Assembly: GCA_050298595.1 (NCBI GenBank)
Contig: JBNKUM010000085.1
Location: 1-64,000, forward strand
Length of the DNA stretch: 64,000 bases
From: Gammaproteobacteria bacterium
GTDB taxonomy: Bacteria > Pseudomonadota > Gammaproteobacteria > GCA-001735895
Reading direction: 5' to 3'
The notes under the pieces were generated by a model that was not told the origin of the DNA, did not search any database, and saw only the letters and a list, made by a program, of their open reading frames with translations. The position numbers were made by a program, and so were the translations under genes. Positions 16,294 through 48,614 of the stretch are shown one piece after another. Numbering within the stretch: position 1 is the stretch's first letter; each line of letters starts with the position of its first letter.

Positions 16294-19200
16294 CTAATTG
16301 GAAACTCTGTATAACAATACGTGCTTTCCAGATGTGGCGCGAATAGTGGAAGTATTAATACCCGGAACCAGCCGTTCCAGGGTTCCCCAACGCCTGATCG
16401 AATTGGACTGTTGTGCAGTTAATATCCTGTCTGCCATCTGATCATTAATACCATCCAGAGTCATCAATTGCGATTTGTTCATTTCGAGTAAATACACCTT
16501 CTCAGCAGGAATACCCACCAGATCATAACTGTTCAGGCTGGTACTAATGATATTACGTACGGTATGCCGACTGATCAGGTTACCGCGAGTTGGTGCAACC
16601 TCTACTGCACTGCAGTCGAGAGTAGTAGGTACTTTTGTTTCAGCTTCTATAACATCAGCAAGTACGGTATCACCAGTGGCTCTAAGATCTGCAACCTTAC
16701 CTGTCTGTAGACCAGAATGAGTTCCATATCTTGCGTTCACCACAAAGTCTATGGTTTTGTTATTCACATTCACCGCATCCTTTGCAAAACGCTCAAAATT
16801 CGGTTCGTGATCTTGCGTATTCGCGTATTGAGTAAGAGGTGTCAGGTTTCGCCAGTCATTTCCTGGGCCGCCCAGATTATTATTTAACAAGTGCCCTGCA
16901 ATATAATAAGACGTACCGCCCTGCCTACGAGCCTTTAAAGTTCTGAAGGTATTATTGCCATTCACATAGCCCTGATTTACTCCGGAACCGTTATTGTTTT
17001 TACTTAGCGTACTAACGCGTATACTGGATCCAAATCCTGCCGAAGTGGTACCACCATAAGAAGGATTAAAGCTGCCAGGCGCTGGTAGATCCAGGTCCGC
17101 CGTTAACACGGCCAGTTCATCGAGTTTAGCTGACAGAACAGTTTGGTCTGGCGGGTTCTGTTCGCTGGACTGACGAATCAACTGATCGATTTCAGTTGAT
17201 TTAGCCGTGGCAGCTGCTTTCGCTGCCTGTATATCAGCAGGTACCTCAAGACTATTCAGGTAGGCTGTGTAATACTGAGGCGTACTGCGCATCATCAACC
17301 TTGCACCTGTACCCTGTCCATCAAAGTAAAGAGTGTGTGTCTCTCCCCTGGCATTCCTGAATCGCTTGCGTGCGCGCCACCAGTTAACTACGGATGCAAC
17401 CGCATTACGGCCCATATTCAGCAGTGAGCTACCAGCGCTCACCGCTCTATCCACCAGCCAGGTCAACGCCCGATCCACCAGCCCTCTAACCCTTTCAATC
17501 ATTTCACCTATGCGTCGACCAATACCACTTAGCCCGACCTGATTGGCGAGAAACCCGATCGCTACCGGCATACCCTGGCTGAGAGAATTCTCCAGAAAAT
17601 TAGCGGCGTTCGTGACATTACCGCGCGCGATTTCTGCCACACCAACAACGAATGAATTGACGATCTCCAGCATTTCGCGCAGATAGCGGATAAAGGATTG
17701 CACCGCATTGTAAAAAGCAATAAAGCCATTCACCACGGCCATGATACCGGTGGGATCCAGCATACTGAGCAGGCGCACAGTGATACGTTCAACAATGCGC
17801 GTCATCACCCAGTTGCGCACCGCTTCCAGCACCGTACTCCACAGATTACTTAACCGCTCCTGTATGTATTCCCAGATAGCAATTGGACCGCGCGTAGCAA
17901 CATCCTTAACAAAGGTCCAGATGCCGGTCAGTCGATCGATCATGCCGCGAATACGTGCTACACGTTCTTCGCCGATACGTTCGGCCAGTTTTTGCCAGAT
18001 TCGTTCTACCGTAATGCCCAGCACTTCCAGCACAAAACCAAGTATTGAACGAAAGCTTAGATCCGTTGGTGGATTAATATTGGCATCGCGTAATTCTCCG
18101 AATAACCAGCCGGTTAACCCATTCAGCAGATGACGCAGGATATTGCCAAAGAATTGCTGGAACCCTGTCTTCACCGCCAGCAATAAATTCTTCAAAAAGC
18201 CGATAGGATCGCGCTTGATATCATCCATTGCCTGTAATGCTCGCGCGATAATGTTACGGATCAGACCGATAGGAAAATTCATTACTTCCATGATGACTTC
18301 GATCACAACCTTGATAATCTCACCAACAAAATTAATCAGACGCAGGATTGGCCCCGCAAAAATTGCCATCAATCTGGCAAAGGCTTCAAACGGTGCCGCC
18401 AGATCTGCCAGTGAAAAACTGTTCCAGGCGCGCGTAAATAGTCCGCGAATATACTCCCAGGTAAAATTCAACATCGCCATCGCTGCTTCAACGCGCGCGG
18501 TCATACGTGCTATGGCACCGCTTTGTTGCATCTCCTGAAACTGTTGCTCTCCATTTTCCATCAGGCTCATGAAACCTCGGATGATATTCGCGGTGTTGCG
18601 TTCGACCACTTCTTCAGAAAACGGATCCTTACCCAGAATGACCGTGATCAATGGATATCCCCTCACGGTTCGGGCATAAGCGACCAGACGATTGATCAGG
18701 GCATCCTTGATGAAACCAAGCACCTTGACAGCAATTTCAATGACGAAATTGATGATGCGCCCGACAGGAGCAGCAAAGATGTTATACAGCTGGCGAAAGG
18801 TTGCGGGTGGATTCAACAGGTTTTGAATGGTGACAAGATCCCAGGCCGCGCTAAAGGATTCGCGAATCACTTCCCAGGTGATATTGAGTCGGGCGACAGC
18901 CCCATCCAGCCAGTCGGCGGCGCGTTGCAGGCTGCCGCTTTCTTCCATCTGACGTAATTGTTCCTGACCACTATCAGTCAGCTGCATGAAGCCGCGCAAC
19001 AACGCAATTGGCGTTCGCTCCACGACTTCCTGGGAAATGGGATCGCGACCTAGAATTACAGTCATCAATGGATAGGCATTCGTTCGCTCGCGGATAAAAG
19101 AGATTAACGCAGATACGACGTAATCCTTAACGATCTGTAGGAGTTTAGCTGCCACATTGACCGCAAAACGACGCAACCTGCCTAAAGGTGCCAGAATAAT

Positions 19201-20547
19201 ATTCGACAGACGGCGCATTACAGTGGACAATCTGGTAGCGTCAGCAATAGTCAAACTGCTCCAGAAACTGGAGAACTGACTAGCAATCTCTGTGGGACTG
19301 AAATCCAGTTCCCTTATCTGTTCATCCAGCCATTGCGCAGCCTCGGCCAGTGCTCCTTCCTGTTCCAGTTTCTGTTTTAATTCAGCACCGTTGGGGATGA
19401 TATCGAGACCCGCTTCGATAAAGTTTCGCCCATTACGTTCAACATGCCGACCGGTTATTGGATCGCTGCCATACACCACGGTAAACAATGAGTACCCCGG
19501 CATATCACTGACAAATTCAGCCGCGCGTTCCTTGATATAATCTATGGCTTCACCGATAGTATCGCCTACCCATTCCACCGCACTGCTAACAGCATTAGAA
19601 ATCGCCGTGACTGGATTCCACCAACGTTGCACACGTGATGTGCTCGAGCTAATTTCTCGTTGCCCCGAAGATAGCCCACCACGTTGTTGGACCACATGAG
19701 TGGCTTCATGCGCCATCAGATGTAAATCAGACTGTGACTGCCCTTCACCCAGCCAGATATCATTTTTATGGGTAAAGGCACGTGCATTGATGGCTGCAGC
19801 AGCCTGATGTGCAGCACTATCCTCGTGTACACGTACCCCACTTAAGTCCGCACCTATACCTGATTCCAGCGTCGCCCTAACATCGGCTCTCAGCTGTGAT
19901 CCAGAAGAGGGAGAATTCACTGCCTGCGCCGCATTATTTACCGGCGCTACGCTACTTTTACTCTGTAATACTTCTTCATCATCCCTGTCAGCTTTGCGCT
20001 GTAATAAACGAGCCTGGACGGGCTCTTCCTCTTCTTCAGCTTGACGTTGAATCACCTTAGTCTGTACTGGTTCTTCCTCTTCTTCTGACTGACGCTGAAG
20101 TATTTTAGTCTGAAGGGGTTCCTCTTCCTGCTCTGACTGACGTTGTAACAATTTTGTCTGAACCGGTTCTTCTTCCTCGATTTGTCGTTGAAATAATTTA
20201 GTCTGTAGCGGCTCTTCTTCCTCTGGCTGGCGCTGTATCTCAGGTTCCTGTAATTCAGTTTCGCTTTCACTCTGTGTCTGAATTGCCTGGCTGGCAGCGT
20301 GCATATTGCTTGCGCTAACCGGAGAAATATCTGTCACCGATTGATTGGCAACAACCCGATCCGCCACACGATCCGCTTCCTGTTCGAAACGGTCATTGGG
20401 CTGACCAATCTTTATTTTAGGTTGAACGATTTGATGAATAGACGCCCGTTGTGCACGTAAGCGCGCACCTGGCACTGAATGGACAGAGGAATTTTTAACG
20501 CTTGAAGAAGACGTTGATTTTTTATCCTTTGCCGCGAAAGTTTTCAC
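16294..20547 (-). CDS. eCIS DUF4157 protein with long helical repeats, a C-terminal DNA/RNA non-specific endonuclease and HhH domain
   Basis: DUF4157 (VRVHED..A..INARAFT...LMAHEATHVVQQ), nuclease motif AGHLLNNNLGGPG..WRNLTPLT..N and HhH-like LMTLDGINDQMADRIL. GTG start. Confidence 0.85.
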   Translation of the reverse strand: MKTFAAKDKKSTSSSSVKNSSVHSVPGARLRAQRASIHQIVQPKIKIGQPNDRFEQEADRVADRVVANQSVTDISPVSASNMHAASQAIQTQSESETELQEPEIQRQPEEEEPLQTKLFQRQIEEEEPVQTKLLQRQSEQEEEPLQTKILQRQSEEEEEPVQTKVIQRQAEEEEEPVQARLLQRKADRDDEEVLQSKSSVAPVNNAAQAVNSPSSGSQLRADVRATLESGIGADLSGVRVHEDSAAHQAAAAINARAFTHKNDIWLGEGQSQSDLHLMAHEATHVVQQRGGLSSGQREISSSTSRVQRWWNPVTAISNAVSSAVEWVGDTIGEAIDYIKERAAEFVSDMPGYSLFTVVYGSDPITGRHVERNGRNFIEAGLDIIPNGAELKQKLEQEGALAEAAQWLDEQIRELDFSPTEIASQFSSFWSSLTIADATRLSTVMRRLSNIILAPLGRLRRFAVNVAAKLLQIVKDYVVSALISFIRERTNAYPLMTVILGRDPISQEVVERTPIALLRGFMQLTDSGQEQLRQMEESGSLQRAADWLDGAVARLNITWEVIRESFSAAWDLVTIQNLLNPPATFRQLYNIFAAPVGRIINFVIEIAVKVLGFIKDALINRLVAYARTVRGYPLITVILGKDPFSEEVVERNTANIIRGFMSLMENGEQQFQEMQQSGAIARMTARVEAAMAMLNFTWEYIRGLFTRAWNSFSLADLAAPFEAFARLMAIFAGPILRLINFVGEIIKVVIEVIMEVMNFPIGLIRNIIARALQAMDDIKRDPIGFLKNLLLAVKTGFQQFFGNILRHLLNGLTGWLFGELRDANINPPTDLSFRSILGFVLEVLGITVERIWQKLAERIGEERVARIRGMIDRLTGIWTFVKDVATRGPIAIWEYIQERLSNLWSTVLEAVRNWVMTRIVERITVRLLSMLDPTGIMAVVNGFIAFYNAVQSFIRYLREMLEIVNSFVVGVAEIARGNVTNAANFLENSLSQGMPVAIGFLANQVGLSGIGRRIGEMIERVRGLVDRALTWLVDRAVSAGSSLLNMGRNAVASVVNWWRARKRFRNARGETHTLYFDGQGTGARLMMRSTPQYYTAYLNSLEVPADIQAAKAAATAKSTEIDQLIRQSSEQNPPDQTVLSAKLDELAVLTADLDLPAPGSFNPSYGGTTSAGFGSSIRVSTLSKNNNGSGVNQGYVNGNNTFRTLKARRQGGTSYYIAGHLLNNNLGGPGNDWRNLTPLTQYANTQDHEPNFERFAKDAVNVNNKTIDFVVNARYGTHSGLQTGKVADLRATGDTVLADVIEAETKVPTTLDCSAVEVAPTRGNLISRHTVRNIISTSLNSYDLVGIPAEKVYLLEMNKSQLMTLDGINDQMADRILTAQQSNSIRRWGTLERLVPGINTSTIRATSGKHVLLYRVSN
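19960..20240 (-). repeat. Six tandem 15-16 aa acidic repeats (QRQxEEEEP[LV]QTK)
   Basis: Directly visible in the translation; two more units occur in the 20615..22375 protein. Confidence 0.85.
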
Positions 20548-22411: not shown

Positions 22412-24682
22412 TTATTCATAAACACAATGCAGGCTCCATGCGTTAAGACTACCGACATCTTTTGAATAAGTATCGACCACGCTTAAACGCCAGTTACCCT
22501 GAATTTCAGTATTTAACAACGACCTCATCGCTTCATTGGCCGTAGTGCTGTAGGTTTGCTTTATGTCATGCCGACTTTTACCACTGCGGTCGTGTAGAAC
22601 CGCCTCCACACCCGTTGGCGACTTCAAAACGACTCTTAGGTCACCTATCCATGTGTGAGAGATATCCACCTCTACATCCAACCTGAGTATACTTCCGCTT
22701 TCGTTTACCTGCAGCTCTCGGCTGATACCGTCTGGGTTTTTATCAGGGATCGGCAGTCCACTATCATCCGTCAAGGTAAACTCTTTTTTCACTGCCTTCT
22801 CTATCGAGAACTCGAGACTCCATTTAAGTAGCTTGCCGGTATCAACAGCCGCGTGATCGGATACCACTAGCTGCCATTCGCCCTGCACCTGATCACCTAA
22901 ATAAGCATTTAGTTCGGGTAAGGTCTGCAGGTTATAGGTAGTAGAAATATCATGTTGTGAACCACCTTTGCGATCATGCAGCACAACTGACTCTCCCTGA
23001 GGCGATGTTAGGATGAGGCGTAGATCACCGATGTAACTGTGCTGGATATCAACCTGAACCTTGAGTGCCTTGACCAAACCCTCATCTGCAATATTCAGCA
23101 CGCTCGATATGCCAGCAGGATTCATATCAGGAATAGCCTGATTAGGCGACACCTCGCGCCGGATCAATACAAAGTCATCTGCAGGGTCTCCTACTCCAAC
23201 AGCAGCCCAGGCGTTTTTCAGGCTGGCATACTCAGATCCGTTATCGCCATACAACTGTCTACAGGCGTTCAATATTGCGTAACGTGCCTGCATAAAGGTC
23301 CATCGACTATCGGTGCTGCTGTACAGATAATTCGTCATCGCCAGGTAGTAAATTTGCTCAACCTTCTCTCGTCCCAGCCCTTGTACACGAACCCCATGGT
23401 GACTACCCCCATCTACAGAAAGGTAGGCTGCCTTGTTTGGTATGCCACTGTTGGAATGCACGTAACCATTATCATTCTTGTTTGAATCGGGTTGTTCGTT
23501 GTCACCTAATGCCAGAAAGTCATCCATGTGGTCAGGTTGTCCATACAGAGCAGGATTGGACATATCCCGTAGCGCATCCCCCCCTCTGAAAGGCGTATAT
23601 ATGCCTTCACCTACTTCCCAATCTTCTATAGCACCGGAATTTGAGGCCATCACTCCAAAAAAATCAGCGAAGGATTCGTCCAGCGCTCCTGCCTGCTCAG
23701 CATAAATAAAACGAGCTGTGCGCGCAGTAACAGCATGTGTCAGCTCATGCCCAACCACGTCCAGTGCCAGTGACAATGGAGCAAAACGAAAGCCATCACC
23801 ATCTCCGTATACCATCTGTTTCAGATAATCTGTCCAGAAAGCATTGTTGTATTTTTCCTTATAATGCACAGTGGATACCAGATTAGCACCTTGGTCGTCA
23901 TAGCTATTGCGCCCAAAGGTATTCAGATAATAATCATGCACGATCAGAGCATTGTCGTGCGCAGCCTGAGCTACCGTGTCACTTGAGTTCTGATCATCCT
24001 GCAAGATCAGAGATGCCTTGAGATTATCTGTATTTTTCGCCGAATAGGTCAGACGTGAAGCAATGTCTTTCATGCGGCTGTGTTTCAACAAAAGACTTCC
24101 ATCATGGGCATCAATGATATGCAGACTGAAAGCCAACTCCAGCCTGCTAACCCACTCAACTTCCCATGCCAGATGAACCTTTCTGGATGAGTCTCGGTAC
24201 AGAATCAGGCGCGCTTTTTTCTCCAGTAGATCTTCCTTTGTTTTACCCGTATCGTGCAGCATAATGTCCAACGCCTGTTCTTCATCAACAAGAGGTTCAA
24301 GAGATACATCTACTGCATCAAGCCGATAATCCTTGTAGGCAACAATTTCCCCCTGAGGATTAATATGGACCTGAGTAGAGCCTTCATAAACAGGAATATC
24401 ATTTAATGATTGAGAAAAATACACATGACTATGTCCCTGTTTATCTATTTCATTGCTGACTATTTGCAAAGACTCTTTTAATCCATCCTGCAAATCCAGT
24501 AACTCGGGATTTTGCTGGAGAAAATCACGTGCGATAGTTTCCGATTTTTCAGATGTTTTCTGTGTTAGCTTTCCCTTGATGAATTTGGCACTTCCTGTTT
24601 CCTCATTCCAGAAAAAATCTACCGTCGAGTCCAGTTGACTCAACCTGTTTACGAGCTTTGACTGTTGATTATTCAGTTTCAT
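22412..24682 (-). CDS. M4 (thermolysin-like) metalloprotease with FTP/PepSY propeptide and two P-proprotein domains
   Basis: NNAFW, VVGHELTH, GALDESFAD and VHSNSG motifs, plus two 'V.VDI.H..IGDLR..L.SP.G' P-domains. Confidence 0.92.
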   Translation of the reverse strand: MKLNNQQSKLVNRLSQLDSTVDFFWNEETGSAKFIKGKLTQKTSEKSETIARDFLQQNPELLDLQDGLKESLQIVSNEIDKQGHSHVYFSQSLNDIPVYEGSTQVHINPQGEIVAYKDYRLDAVDVSLEPLVDEEQALDIMLHDTGKTKEDLLEKKARLILYRDSSRKVHLAWEVEWVSRLELAFSLHIIDAHDGSLLLKHSRMKDIASRLTYSAKNTDNLKASLILQDDQNSSDTVAQAAHDNALIVHDYYLNTFGRNSYDDQGANLVSTVHYKEKYNNAFWTDYLKQMVYGDGDGFRFAPLSLALDVVGHELTHAVTARTARFIYAEQAGALDESFADFFGVMASNSGAIEDWEVGEGIYTPFRGGDALRDMSNPALYGQPDHMDDFLALGDNEQPDSNKNDNGYVHSNSGIPNKAAYLSVDGGSHHGVRVQGLGREKVEQIYYLAMTNYLYSSTDSRWTFMQARYAILNACRQLYGDNGSEYASLKNAWAAVGVGDPADDFVLIRREVSPNQAIPDMNPAGISSVLNIADEGLVKALKVQVDIQHSYIGDLRLILTSPQGESVVLHDRKGGSQHDISTTYNLQTLPELNAYLGDQVQGEWQLVVSDHAAVDTGKLLKWSLEFSIEKAVKKEFTLTDDSGLPIPDKNPDGISRELQVNESGSILRLDVEVDISHTWIGDLRVVLKSPTGVEAVLHDRSGKSRHDIKQTYSTTANEAMRSLLNTEIQGNWRLSVVDTYSKDVGSLNAWSLHCVYE

Positions 24683-38767: not shown

Positions 38768-38997
38768 CGGCTTACTCCTGCTTGCGTGGTGATTAACTGG
38801 TTAACAATCATTTGTGCGATTTCATCGTCTGAAGTACTGGCCCGAATGTTTTGTGCAGAGATATTGACCACATCATTCGATACCTGACGAGATGGCGCCT
38901 GTTTTGCCAGTACCTTGCCCACCATGTGCGCGATACTGGCAGCACGGTGTTCAAAACCAGCAGGAAGTCGCATACGCAAACGATCAATCTGAATCAT
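38764..38997 (-). CDS. Small eCIS-associated hypothetical protein
   Basis: 77 aa starting IQIDRLRMRLP, with 4-bp overlaps on both sides. Confidence 0.7.
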   Translation of the reverse strand: MIQIDRLRMRLPAGFEHRAASIAHMVGKVLAKQAPSRQVSNDVVNISAQNIRASTSDDEIAQMIVNQLITTQAGVSR

Positions 38998-40313
38998 TCC
39001 TTAAGCTCCCGCTTGAGAAAACTGGCAAACTTGCCCATACCGGCAGATGACTGCTCGCCTCCCTTTTTGCAGAATTCACTCCACACCGCATTCGCAATAT
39101 GGCTGTTGCCGATGGGTTTTGAATCACCTGCTGCTAGAAAAGCCGCATGCAGGGCAGCGTTACGAATCTGCCCGCCAGTGAGATTGAATTCATTGCCCAG
39201 CAATCTGGTATCGATATCACTGTCGCGCGGCGCAGCTGGTGGAATATGCAACTCCCATAGGCGTGACCGTGCATCCACTTCTGGCTTTGGAAAATCAATC
39301 ACCATTTGAAAACGTCGGGTAAAGGCCGTGTCGATATGTTTGCGCAGATTGGTAGTTAGAATACAGGGTCCCTTATGACGCTCGACACGTGACAACAGGT
39401 GACTCACTTCCATATTGGCATAGCGATCACGCGCTTCCTTAACCTCGCCACGCTTGCTAAACAGACTATCAGCTTCATCGAATAACAATACCAGTTGCTG
39501 ACCGTCAGCGGCCTCGAACAGTGCATTCAGATTCTTTTCGGTTTCCCCGATATACTTGCTCACCAGCAGACCCAGATCGACCCGAAACAAAGGCCAGCCC
39601 AACGCATTCGCCACTACCTCGGCAGCAAAGGTTTTACCGGTACCCGATGAGCCGGAGAATAACGCTACCGGACCACCAGTGACCCTGGCGCCCCATTGCT
39701 GCTCTACCTGTTGGCGATGCGTAACCCAGAGGATAAATTCGCGCAACTTGCGCAAGCAGGATTCGGGCAACACCAGTTCATCCCAGCTCGCCTCACAAGC
39801 TACCTGTACCGCACCGGGTACACTCACCTTGCTGTTTAGCTGCCAACCTAGCAATTGTTGACAGGCCAGCGTTGAGGGACGTATGGGTTGAAACAATCCC
39901 GGCTCTCCCGTCTCTAGCAGACCGCTGCGAATCAGTGTTGAATCCTGCGACAGCTTGTGGTTAAATTTCTGCGATTCCTCGTGGTTTAACACGAACATTT
40001 CTCGAATCAGTGCCGGAGTCGGATAAGGCGTGGTCATGCCGTTTTGCAATTCCTGATACATCCAGCCCAGTCGCGGCTCTGCCTCAGGTGCCAGACAGCA
40101 GGCGATAATATCCTGATCCAGCGTATCCAGTCCGTAGTTGCGCTGTAACGAGTTCCACGGATCCTGAGCACGTAAGGCATTCACATCGCTTTGTACTTGC
40201 TCCAGACGTGCGCCGACCTCATCAGGCAGCTCTGCACCTCGGCGATAAGCACCAAGACAGGCACCCAGTAAATCAATACGTTCCCATTCAGCAGCTAGCG
40301 GCATAACATTCAT
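38994..40313 (-). CDS. eCIS AAA+ ATPase (Afp15-like)
   Basis: GSSGTGKT, VSKYIGETEKNL and LLFDEADSLFSKRGEVKEARDRYAN.EV motifs. Confidence 0.92.
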   Translation of the reverse strand: MNVMPLAAEWERIDLLGACLGAYRRGAELPDEVGARLEQVQSDVNALRAQDPWNSLQRNYGLDTLDQDIIACCLAPEAEPRLGWMYQELQNGMTTPYPTPALIREMFVLNHEESQKFNHKLSQDSTLIRSGLLETGEPGLFQPIRPSTLACQQLLGWQLNSKVSVPGAVQVACEASWDELVLPESCLRKLREFILWVTHRQQVEQQWGARVTGGPVALFSGSSGTGKTFAAEVVANALGWPLFRVDLGLLVSKYIGETEKNLNALFEAADGQQLVLLFDEADSLFSKRGEVKEARDRYANMEVSHLLSRVERHKGPCILTTNLRKHIDTAFTRRFQMVIDFPKPEVDARSRLWELHIPPAAPRDSDIDTRLLGNEFNLTGGQIRNAALHAAFLAAGDSKPIGNSHIANAVWSEFCKKGGEQSSAGMGKFASFLKRELKE

Positions 40314-42769: not shown

Positions 42770-43594
42770 CTAACCTGCGCTACCGCTGTGCGAAGAGCGG
42801 CTTATCAGTTGCAAATAGCGTCGGCGTTTTGTACGCGGCAAATCGAGGATTTCAGCTTCACTCCAGTGGTAGTGACTGGCCAGGGTATGAATCTCGTCGT
42901 AAAAAAAGTATTCATCCAGACCAATATTGGCGTAGTGATCCAGTAAGGCGCTTTGTTCGGTATGACACTCAGGGCAGCTAACCAGCAGACGATCACAAAC
43001 TGCGGGGGCAACCTCATCCAGCGCTTCGTCAATGGCCTCGATTTCAGCCTCGTTCAGCAAGCGAGAAAAGTCTGCATGCGGTGACTCGCCATTTACCGAA
43101 CAGATACATTGCTGCAACAGGGTGAGTAAAGCTTCATCCTCTGATATTTGTGAGATAGCCTGCTGATCCTGTCCATTGGGCACCCTGGCTTTTATATCCC
43201 AGTTTTCCAGATGTAATGAAACCTCAGGAAAGCTGTCACCAGCCGCTTTAACAGGTAACTCACAACGCTGTAATTCGACATCAAACGGCTCTCCACAATG
43301 ACCACAATCTACCTTCAGCCACATTTGCTCCCCGCCGAGTAAGGCAGCTAGCCGTAGCATTAGATACTGGCGGTCAGCCACAGTTAGACGAGATACGATA
43401 TCGGCATCCACTGCTGATTCACCAATTGCATCCAGCACCTGAGAGAGCACGGCTGTTACATAGGCAGGTCGATCCAGATTCGCTGCGGACTCAATCAGCG
43501 ATTGCTCAATACGTCCAGTCAAAGGCCGAAATCTGGCATTACGTTGAATGCATCCACCCTGTAGCAGGCCACCGGGAAGCTGTACTTCCATCAT
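42770..43594 (-). CDS. Tail assembly chaperone / gp26-like protein with two CxxC pairs and a DUF6760-like C-terminus
   Basis: RPLTG..E, LTVADRQYLML, CGHC, CPEC and EIHTLASHYHWSEAEILDLP...RRRY; follows the tube gene. Confidence 0.7.
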   Translation of the reverse strand: MMEVQLPGGLLQGGCIQRNARFRPLTGRIEQSLIESAANLDRPAYVTAVLSQVLDAIGESAVDADIVSRLTVADRQYLMLRLAALLGGEQMWLKVDCGHCGEPFDVELQRCELPVKAAGDSFPEVSLHLENWDIKARVPNGQDQQAISQISEDEALLTLLQQCICSVNGESPHADFSRLLNEAEIEAIDEALDEVAPAVCDRLLVSCPECHTEQSALLDHYANIGLDEYFFYDEIHTLASHYHWSEAEILDLPRTKRRRYLQLISRSSHSGSAG

Positions 43595-46925: not shown

Positions 46926-46941
46926 TGCATCAGATGTGCCA
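46926..46941 (-). promoter_or_regulatory. sigma54 (-24/-12) promoter of the eCIS operon
   Basis: The minus strand reads TGGCACATCTGATGCA (GG-N10-GC), 40 bp upstream of the first ATG. Confidence 0.8.
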
Positions 46942-47201: not shown

Positions 47202-48614
47202 TTATTTTGATATTTCTACATGACCAACATGAGCCTTAGCAGCTGTTAATAACCCATATTTTTCCATCAGCCGAGTAAACGATCTACGCTCTTTACCGGC
47301 AATACGAGCGGCTTCAGAGATGTTACCCTTAGCCTTATCCAATACACTAACCAGATAACGTTGTTCAAAATCTTCGATAACACAGGACTTGGCCTCTACC
47401 ATAGGTTGAGACATCAATCTATGCAGACGGCGGTCTCCATTAAAAGCTCGTCTTTCACGCTTTCTGGTTTCCAGCTCATCAATATAGATATATTTCCCTT
47501 CCGCCATCAAAAACTCTCGATGTAGCGTATTCTCAAGCTCTCTTACATTGCCTGGCCAGTCATGGTATCTAAGTGCCTCCAGCGAACCAGGGTGTAGTGT
47601 TCTCTCTGGCTGATCATACTGAAACTGCAATTGACGAATAAAATGTTCTGCCAGTAACTGGATATCCCCACTGCGCTCTCTTAGCGGTGGTAACAGAATA
47701 TTAATCAGGTTGATTCGATAGAAAAGGTCTTTACGGAACTCACCTTGTTCAACCATCTCTGCAATGTTTTCATTGGTTGCCGTAATAATCCGTACATTGG
47801 CTTTTTTAGCGGCTTTACTACCCAGGGGGCGGTATATCAGGTTTTCCAGAAATCGTAACAATACTACCTGCCCTCTAGCTGACAGGGTTTCAATTTCATC
47901 CAGGAATAAGGTGCCGCCATCGGCCTGACATATTAAACCGTTGCTACTTGCTGACGCATCGGTAAAAGCACCCTTCTCATGTCCAAACAACTCATTTTCA
48001 ATTAACTGGTCGGGTAATGCGCCACAGTTAGTAGCAATAAAGGGCTGATCTTTTCTGGTGCCCAGATAATGAATCGCACGCGCAACTAGCTCCTTACCGG
48101 TTCCAGTTTCACCATCGATATAAACAGGTGCATCACAGTGCATAATTTTATGTATTTTTTTAAGTACCTGCTGGAACCCTGGTGAATTTCCGATCAGTTT
48201 CATTTGTCTGAAAATATTGACATCAACTGCTTCGCTGGAAAAATCTCGATATATCAATTTACCCAGCCGATAATCCAGTTCGTTGGTTTCACAGGGAAAG
48301 GTCTCGATTTCATTACAGGCTTTGACTATTTCAGGAATGAACAGCGGGGTTTTCTCTGCAAATAACCCTAATACTGGTATGGCAGGATCCAGTTTTAAAA
48401 TATCAATAGTGTCTGATTTACACTGGTTTTTTTCAGTAAAGAGCAGTATAAGCGCTATTATGCTACCTTCACTCATTAACTTATCCAGTAGTATGCGATT
48501 TTTTACAAGATGAATATTCAGGTATCCGGCATGCTCCAGCATCAAAGAGAGTTGCTTGTCGTCTGCTGAGCTGGCGTTTGAATAAATGATTATTTTTTCT
48601 GCCTGACTTTCCAT
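47202..48614 (-). CDS. sigma54 enhancer-binding protein with a degenerate receiver-like N-terminus
   Basis: GETGTGKE, ENELFGHEKGAFTDA, LFLDEI, WPGNVRELEN and a C-terminal GNISEAARIAG HTH. Confidence 0.92.
   Translation of the reverse strand: MESQAEKIIIYSNASSADDKQLSLMLEHAGYLNIHLVKNRILLDKLMSEGSIIALILLFTEKNQCKSDTIDILKLDPAIPVLGLFAEKTPLFIPEIVKACNEIETFPCETNELDYRLGKLIYRDFSSEAVDVNIFRQMKLIGNSPGFQQVLKKIHKIMHCDAPVYIDGETGTGKELVARAIHYLGTRKDQPFIATNCGALPDQLIENELFGHEKGAFTDASASSNGLICQADGGTLFLDEIETLSARGQVVLLRFLENLIYRPLGSKAAKKANVRIITATNENIAEMVEQGEFRKDLFYRINLINILLPPLRERSGDIQLLAEHFIRQLQFQYDQPERTLHPGSLEALRYHDWPGNVRELENTLHREFLMAEGKYIYIDELETRKRERRAFNGDRRLHRLMSQPMVEAKSCVIEDFEQRYLVSVLDKAKGNISEAARIAGKERRSFTRLMEKYGLLTAAKAHVGHVEISK

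Follow-up and report, generated by a model that had tools for sequence, protein, structure and literature searches.

A tape-measure-like DUF4157 protein with a nuclease tip, probably an optional cargo effector of a gammaproteobacterial extracellular contractile injection system

Can one protein both set the length of a contractile injection tube and be the toxin that the tube delivers? The question is raised by a stretch of 64,000 nucleotides from a Gammaproteobacteria bacterium (assembly GCA_050298595.1, contig JBNKUM010000085.1, positions 1 to 64,000), hereafter the window, in which a Pfam scan of the encoded proteins places the gene cluster that encodes an extracellular contractile injection system (eCIS) at about 15.6-46.5 kb on the minus strand. 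At the 3' end of this operon lies P0001 (16294..20547, minus strand, stop codon 16294-16296 included), one uninterrupted frame of 1417 amino acids (aa) that begins with GTG. The original prediction, made from the letters of the DNA, saw in it a tape-measure-like scaffold fused to a nuclease, and proposed that the same chain may rule the tube and deliver the nuclease. Comparison with its relatives leads us to a different reading: P0001 is probably an optional eCIS cargo effector of the type of Tme and Cgo2, with a conserved delivery body and an exchangeable toxin tip, and not the ruler of the tube.

Support for the upstream GTG start comes from the adjacent DUF4157 protein, with which residues 1-120 align from residue 1. 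P0001 forms the longest open reading frame (ORF) of the contractile injection system (CIS) cluster, its 1417 aa exceeding the 1258 and 1201 aa of the runners-up; it is co-directional with the eCIS operon, and 67 bp separate it from the upstream gene. From 46.5 kb downwards the operon encodes a sheath, a gp19-type tube, a T4_baseplate/DUF6760 protein, a 436-aa protein without family (P0122) and a Pvc16_N cap; then an AAA ATPase, CIS_tube, a VgrG-type spike, gp25, Baseplate_J and P2_I; and lastly a fibre-like DUF6519 protein of 1258 aa, an M4 peptidase, a 586-aa DUF4157 protein (P0124) and P0001 itself. The position after the fibre gene is kept for the body-bearing gene in a second genome with a syntenic eCIS (G276) and in loci L079, L080, L085 and L089.

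Residues 1-218 (19894..20547, minus strand) form a polar N-terminal region with 14% E, 14% Q and 11.5% S. It has no hydrophobic core, and the "leader" of the original prediction is therefore not a Sec signal. The region contains a conserved motif, QPK..G.P.D..E.EAD..A..V, and, at residues ~109-186, five acidic repeats of the form EEEEP[LV]Q[TA][KR]..LQR[QK], encoded by a tandem array of 45-48-bp DNA units at 19988-20235. Next comes a DUF4157, or eCIS_core, domain (PF13699; residues 219-291; 19675..19893, minus strand; Pfam E-value 4.7e-23), in whose HExxH motif H280, E281 and H284 are invariant. Acidic repeats and DUF4157 are thus present as they had been read. DUF4157 was defined as an eCIS core domain found N-terminal to toxins and as an eCIS-specific marker; a linker exceeding 1000 aa sometimes follows it, as was noted in 2021 (Geller et al. 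2021, PMC8213781).

The neighbouring P0124 (20615..22375, minus strand), recognised by Pfam and by alignment, is 39% identical to P0001 over residues 1-323 (E-value 4e-49), which covers the N-terminal region and DUF4157. In AlgoCIS, the disordered N-terminal region shared by the cargos Cgo1 and Cgo2 is needed for loading, while DUF4157 is dispensable (bioRxiv 10.64898/2026.05.27.728243). By analogy with that pair, the N-terminal region of P0001 may serve as a loading sequence, and P0124 is a probable second cargo, like Cgo1.

Between DUF4157 and the nuclease lie about 750 aa of predicted helix, as had been claimed: in an AlphaFold2 model of residues 300-1100, 603 of the 801 residues are helical, the model being of low confidence (predicted local distance difference test, pLDDT, 61.6; predicted template modelling score, pTM, 0.31). 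Self-comparison, the model and a pre-toxin score all outline three helical repeats of ~140 aa at residues ~331-750 (18298..19557, minus strand), the motif beginning at residues 352, 492 and 631 in turn. Identity is 44% between repeats 2 and 3 (E-value 3e-39) and 32% between repeats 1 and 2 (E-value 3e-26), and each repeat carries a PT-TG-like hairpin, Y.L.TV..G.DP....VER. The three repeats had been counted correctly, but the motif is exact in repeats 2 and 3, repeat 1 being one residue longer. The PT-TG pre-toxin signature reaches 28.3 bits on a repeat fragment (cut-off 23.5) and stays below threshold on the whole protein.

The second part of the body ties it to phage tails. Residues 656-1055 (17383..18582, minus strand), which include the most conserved, hydrophobic helices of the family, match the profile of PHROG 58, "tail length tape measure protein", at an E-value of 1e-17, and PHROG 1535 at 1e-4. 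Among 31 diverse relatives, 26 match PHROG 58 and up to 15 match other tape-measure PHROGs. Judged by these profiles, the helical body of P0001 is homologous to phage tape-measure proteins; the scaffold that had been called tape-measure-like is so by homology and not by appearance alone. A PDB sequence search with P0001 gave only a chance-level match to apolipoprotein C-III. As for other bodies, a sister locus (L087:16225-20211) encodes, after the fibre gene, a 1328-aa DUF4157 protein with a long C-terminal part unrelated to the tape-measure-like body, and then a TPR protein; large DUF4157 cargos thus carry more than one kind of body.

The C-terminus begins with a pre-toxin linker (residues 1056-1190; 16978..17382, minus strand), placed where homologs diverge, between ~1047 and 1180. 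It leads into a His-Me finger nuclease domain of the NucA/EndA/EsaD kind (residues ~1170-1350; 16498..17040, minus strand). Across an alignment of 29 sequences five residues do not vary (R1207, H1219, N1234, N1243 and E1252), and the AlphaFold2 model of the C-terminal domain has a pLDDT of 86.9. Foldseek places NucA (4qgo) first among its structural relatives, with an E-value of 1.8e-4, followed by Spd1, EsaD and EndA. Alignment, model and structural search agree on a beta-beta-alpha-metal fold with conserved His and Asn, and so support a His-Me nuclease, as predicted from fold and conserved residues. The original prediction of a nuclease holds, as does its catalytic codon, since 16891-16893 is CAC and encodes His1219; the spacing of its GHLL...GG motif was off by one residue. 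The last residues, ~1351-1417 (16297..16497, minus strand), are a helical tail in the model. Its likeness to a helix-hairpin-helix (HhH) domain, also part of that prediction, is weak: HHH_3 matches at an E-value of 0.011 and 16.2 bits against a cut-off of 27, and is significant only in two relatives with other tails.

How widespread is the body, and what does it carry? A search with residues 300-1100 scored 8000 candidates, of which 879 match at E<=0.001; over the body, the top 120 are 48-100% identical to the query. A species-genome scan confirmed 637 relatives. This very large family is conserved across phyla: Bacteroidota, Pseudomonadota, Actinomycetota, Chlorobiota, Cyanobacteria and Verrucomicrobiota, with one archaeon in addition. 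A homolog from Algoriphagus yeomjeoni, 44% identical and with a nuclease tail, adjoins CIS_TMP and AAA genes; actinobacterial homologs (L018, L020 and L021) are 33-39% identical. Overall, an AAA gene occurs within the fetched locus of 51 of 70 relatives.

Many of these alignments end at ~1047-1180, even for some proteins that are 93% identical in the body. The C-terminal tails of 118 proteins fall into 16 clusters, the largest with 84 members, 65 of which have a GH...N.P motif. A further look at the 32 tails that BLAST could not align to that of the window found 10 divergent Endonuclea_NS_2 domains (two of them also with HHH_3), one weak deaminase match and 21 tails without a Pfam family; in the ten, the Endonuclea_NS_2 scores reach or approach the cut-off. 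These sequence comparisons indicate that C-termini are exchanged behind a conserved body in the fashion of polymorphic toxins. The homolog comparison that had been suggested for this purpose thus gave the expected picture of one body and many tips.

We then ask whether this body measures the tube. The tape measures Afp14, Pvc14 and Alg14 of contractile injection systems belong to the Pfam family PF19268 (CIS_TMP). As a positive control, its profile finds a 525-aa protein of A. yeomjeoni (L001:6740-8317), encoded upstream of the ATPase and the homolog, at an E-value of 1.6e-98. P0001 has no PF19268 match at E<=0.01, and the 20 proteins encoded by the window's locus are without a match too, in line with the earlier remark that no Afp14-type gene is evident there. 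PF19268 is also absent throughout G276, a genome that is 99% complete. The window's own genome has a single match, which belongs to a second CIS on a different contig, C101. That second system, at ~144.8-165.1 kb of C101, has a sheath, an AAA ATPase, a DUF4157 gene and a PF19268 tape measure in an unusually long open frame of 1367 aa.

Among the relatives, body and dedicated tape measure usually coexist. Of the 70 fetched loci, 44 have a PF19268-like ORF upstream of the homolog at a distance of at most 10 kb; where the body ORF is complete, the gene is found upstream in 28 of 34 (the exceptions being L018, L020, L021, L030, L034 and L037). In the 25 loci with both genes complete, the length of CIS_TMP and the span of the body are uncorrelated (Spearman 0.04, p 0.85), a descriptive figure only, as related loci are not independent. 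The bodies come in discrete length classes of ~700-750, 545-570 and 415-440 aa, or, in round numbers, of ~420, 550 and 700-750 aa.

Within the lineage of the window the body is optional. Searched with the P2_I protein, metagenome contigs gave 48 loci of identical gene order, and our sample was the 14 same-lineage loci with at least 6 kb after the fibre hit, among them the near duplicates L096 and L097. Over the at most 8.5 kb covered, three of the 14 (L080, L085 and L089) carry the body; ten have only shorter or different DUF4157 proteins and one has neither, and in some of the 14 genes on the opposite strand follow. A CIS tape measure is expected to be a core gene, present in every locus of a lineage, which is not the distribution seen here.

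Published mutants separate cargo from ruler. Changing the length of Alg14 alters AlgoCIS particle length (bioRxiv 10.64898/2026.05.27.728243), and AlgoCIS particles deficient in Cgo1 and Cgo2, which fill the tube lumen, are assembled but empty (PMC8894135). In Streptomyces lividans, removal of the tape-measure-like effector Sle1 together with its DUF4157 partner (delta-sle1/2) leaves particles without apparent structural defect (PMC13277306). Uncorrelated lengths beside a dedicated CIS_TMP, presence in 3 of 14 same-lineage loci, another conserved gene in the afp14 slot and cargo mutants of two systems that still assemble particles all speak against the length-setting half of the original prediction, and P0001 probably does not set tube length. 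Since its family is large and spans phyla, coexists with a tape measure, comes in discrete lengths and is optional in one lineage, the body is better seen as a portable delivery module than as a ruler. No case of one protein with demonstrated ruler and effector roles came up in a literature search.

The closest parallel is Tme (BN159_7576) of the Streptomyces davawensis CIS, a protein with a tape-measure-related region between DUF4157 and an EndA-like nuclease (Nagakubo et al. 2024, PMC11126660). The toxicity of its nuclease is lost upon a His-to-Ala change, the nuclease drives release of extracellular DNA (eDNA) in the producer, Tme co-purified with spike and tube-initiator proteins, and its authors proposed a cross-phyla family with exchangeable C-termini (PMC11126660). 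Set beside it by description, P0001 shares an N-terminal DUF4157, a central remote tape-measure homology, a C-terminal EndA-related nuclease with a catalytic His, and its rank as the largest ORF of the cluster. It differs in size (1417 aa against 2247 aa), in its body, predicted to be helical with three 140-aa repeats where Tme, by its description, is ~70% disordered and has predicted transmembrane helices, and in its place: tme lies immediately upstream of the baseplate genes, P0001 at the 3' end, where it follows the fibre and other cargo genes. The plan of DUF4157, tape-measure-like body and nuclease has thus been in print since 2024 (PMC11126660); P0001 adds to it a proteobacterial-type member with a clearly repeated body.

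AlgoCIS, from Algoriphagus machipongonensis, offers a second parallel in Cgo1 and Cgo2, a small and a large DUF4157 protein that share a disordered N-terminal region (PMC8894135; bioRxiv 10.64898/2026.05.27.728243); this region and the ATPase Alg15 are needed for cargo loading (bioRxiv 10.64898/2026.05.27.728243). P0124 and P0001 are built in the same way, with an N-terminal region common to the pair, then DUF4157, then a variable C-terminal domain. The likeness of P0001 to Cgo2 in particular is one of description, these papers giving only a long C-terminal domain for Cgo2. The systems differ in that AlgoCIS is of subtype Ib and has its length set by the PF19268 tape measure Alg14, whereas the window's eCIS is without PF19268 and its sheath is, among solved structures, nearest in sequence to 8bky and 8bl4.

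With Afp14, Pvc14 and Alg14 themselves, P0001 would have in common that they are long helical proteins of the tube lumen; it differs in matching no PF19268 profile, in its variable C-terminus, and in a body that coexists with PF19268 genes in most related loci and is optional in its own lineage. Polymorphic toxins with tips of the Endonuclease_NS_2/EsaD type resemble it in the conserved delivery part with an exchangeable C-terminal toxin, the PT-TG-like signature and the NucA/EsaD-like fold. Unlike them, P0001 would be delivered by an eCIS through DUF4157 and its N-terminal loading region, and not by type V, VI or VII secretion (T5SS, T6SS or T7SS), and its window has no recognisable cognate immunity gene.

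We now propose a delivery route for P0001, drawn by analogy with these systems. The AAA+ ATPase of the operon (38994..40313, minus strand; Afp15/Alg15-like by Pfam), the putative cargo loader, would recognise the N-terminal region and thread P0001, in a largely unfolded or extended form, into the lumen of the tube along with the 586-aa P0124. Contraction of the sheath would expel the cargo. The hydrophobic helices derived from a tape measure might then aid P0001 in entering or crossing the membrane of the target, a role proposed for phage tape-measure proteins, after which the nuclease would cut nucleic acid in the target.

Several points weigh against this account. Loading, ejection, membrane action and nuclease activity of P0001 are all argued by analogy, and its likeness to Tme and to Cgo2 (ALPR1_12690) is one of description and not of alignment. 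The hydrophobic stretches of the body hold charged residues and are not classical transmembrane helices; the model of the body is of low confidence, and the absence of a Foldseek match to it at E<=0.001 is for that reason uninformative. On the nuclease, PF13930 (Endonuclea_NS_2) stays short of its cut-off of 27 bits, with 23.4 for the whole protein and 26.5 for a fragment, and where Tme has a DRGH motif the sequence reads IAGH, the literal DRGH being absent. No cognate immunity gene is evident in the window. The count over 14 loci spans at most 8.5 kb after the fibre hit, so that a copy of the body could lie elsewhere, and these related loci are not independent. Lastly, in a locus without PF19268 the sequence alone leaves room for a length-setting role of P0001.

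The alternative that survives best accepts P0001 as an effector and turns it on the producer's own cells, for eDNA release or programmed death as reported for Tme. The domain plan is that of Tme, the driver of eDNA release in its producer (PMC11126660), and the window shows no evident cognate immunity gene. On the other hand, the locus encodes P2_I, Baseplate_J and a large fibre-like protein (DUF6519, 1258 aa), as is typical of particles that bind a target, and immunity-type genes (Tdi1, ankyrin) follow some relatives, which fits inter-bacterial use. The nearest solved relatives of the window's sheath by sequence are 8bky and 8bl4, which we take to be the cytoplasmic CIS of Streptomyces coelicolor; this too would suit a producer-directed role. 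On balance we consider such a role unlikely.

The dual function with which we began, a body that still rules the tube in a lineage without Afp14 while the same chain delivers the nuclease, strikes us as quite improbable. Several points speak for it: neither the locus nor any part of G276 encodes PF19268; three actinobacterial genomes with a homolog have neither PF19268 nor a gene like P0122; the body is homologous to phage tape measures and no ORF of the cluster is longer than P0001. In CIS-Sc, particle length is uniform though a typical tape-measure gene is absent (PMC10066040, PMC12237407), and Tme was found with spike and tube-initiator proteins (PMC11126660). Against this stand the rarity of the body in its own lineage (3 of the 14 loci with enough downstream sequence), the usual presence of a dedicated CIS_TMP of uncorrelated length beside its relatives, and the assembly of delta-sle1/2 (PMC13277306) and Cgo1/Cgo2-minus (PMC8894135) particles. 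P0001 also sits among the cargo genes of the 3' end and has a cargo-type N-terminal region in common with its neighbour, and the afp14 slot is taken by P0122, which recurs in G276 and in L112, a locus without the body. The C-terminus of true tape measures anchors in the baseplate hub, and in the P0001 family it is the C-terminus that is swapped. The general form of the idea, in which eCIS lineages lacking Afp14 measure the tube with the body of a DUF4157 effector, so that one chain is both ruler and injected nuclease, is a long shot; if true, such a chain would be a living intermediate between phage tape measure and CIS toxin.

Export of P0001 as a polymorphic toxin by another route, with the eCIS operon merely adjacent, is hardly credible: the weak PT-TG pre-toxin signature and the variable C-termini would suit it, against which DUF4157 is eCIS-specific (PMC8213781), the gene is co-directional and 67 bp from its upstream neighbour, 51 of 70 relatives have a gene for an eCIS AAA ATPase in their fetched locus, the post-fibre position recurs in G276, L079, L080, L085 and L089, and P0001 has no signal peptide.

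If P0001 is an optional effector, what measures the tube? A better candidate ruler, by its sequence features, is P0122 (41455..42765, minus strand), the 436-aa protein in the afp14 slot between the gp26-like and cap genes, which is not part of the effector. It has a conserved N-terminus of ~16 residues, a conserved C-terminus of ~45 residues and a polar, low-complexity middle that evolves fast; conserved ends and conserved length around a free middle are what one would expect of a ruler. Its profile finds 69 matches among 1.8 billion representatives, mostly of 345-531 aa, and no Pfam family in the 49 relatives scanned. A syntenic copy of 482 aa is present in G276, where the flanking genes are 50-88% identical, and another precedes the cap gene in L112, recognised by eye from both termini and not by hidden Markov model (HMM).

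By sequence, P0122 shows no likeness to CIS_TMP: BLASTP against the CIS_TMP of A. yeomjeoni gave no match, and hhalign of its alignment against 37 CIS_TMP sequences (probability 0.13) found no profile similarity to PF19268. The P0122 HMM has no match in the 70 genome loci or in four other genomes, and none at E<=0.01 in the 48 metagenome loci; PDB sequence searches with P0122, the cap protein and the gp26-like protein gave no match, and ESM Atlas matches of P0122 and of the downstream protein P0123 belong to unnamed clusters only. A predicted complex of three VgrG copies and three C-terminal 60-residue pieces of P0122 scored 0.00, which counts neither way. The remark of the original prediction on the missing tape measure touches a real open point, as the Streptomyces CIS papers report the same absence. 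P0122 bears on the question they raise, namely what sets particle length without a tape-measure gene, and is in our view a more novel lead than P0001.

Next to it, between the tube gene and P0122, lies a gene for a 274-aa protein (42770-43594, minus strand) that matches PF12322 (T4_baseplate), DUF6760 and PHROG 150 (baseplate hub). G276 conserves this protein too.

Directly downstream of P0001 is P0123 (15624..16217, minus strand), a 197-aa protein with two N-terminal hydrophobic helices. A homolog, 43% identical (E-value 4e-46), follows the body relative in L080, whose C-terminal domain has no similarity to the nuclease of the window. P0123 therefore accompanies the body and not the toxin, a conserved companion; its candidacy as immunity protein of the nuclease was rejected for want of co-variation with the tail. 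P0134, the downstream protein of G276, resembles P0123 in having two N-terminal hydrophobic helices and an R(D/E)LGH motif, although BLASTP does not align the two. Of 13 tightly coupled downstream genes scanned elsewhere, one encodes a Tdi1-type immunity protein (L062) and two encode ankyrin proteins (L051 and L068).

The M4 peptidase of the operon (22412-24682, minus strand), encoded between the fibre-like and DUF4157 cargo genes, is a thermolysin-type enzyme of 756 aa with a propeptide and two P-domains. A partial homolog follows the fibre gene in L083, and the peptidase could be a further cargo or a processing enzyme.

Finally, a gene for a sigma-54 enhancer-binding protein (47202-48614, minus strand) lies just upstream of the sheath gene. 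The sigma-54 promoter pattern occurs six times in the window, against 5.76 matches expected by chance, and one site alone is suggestive by its position: a -24/-12-like site with one mismatch at 46927-46941 (minus strand), between the enhancer-binding protein gene and the sheath gene.

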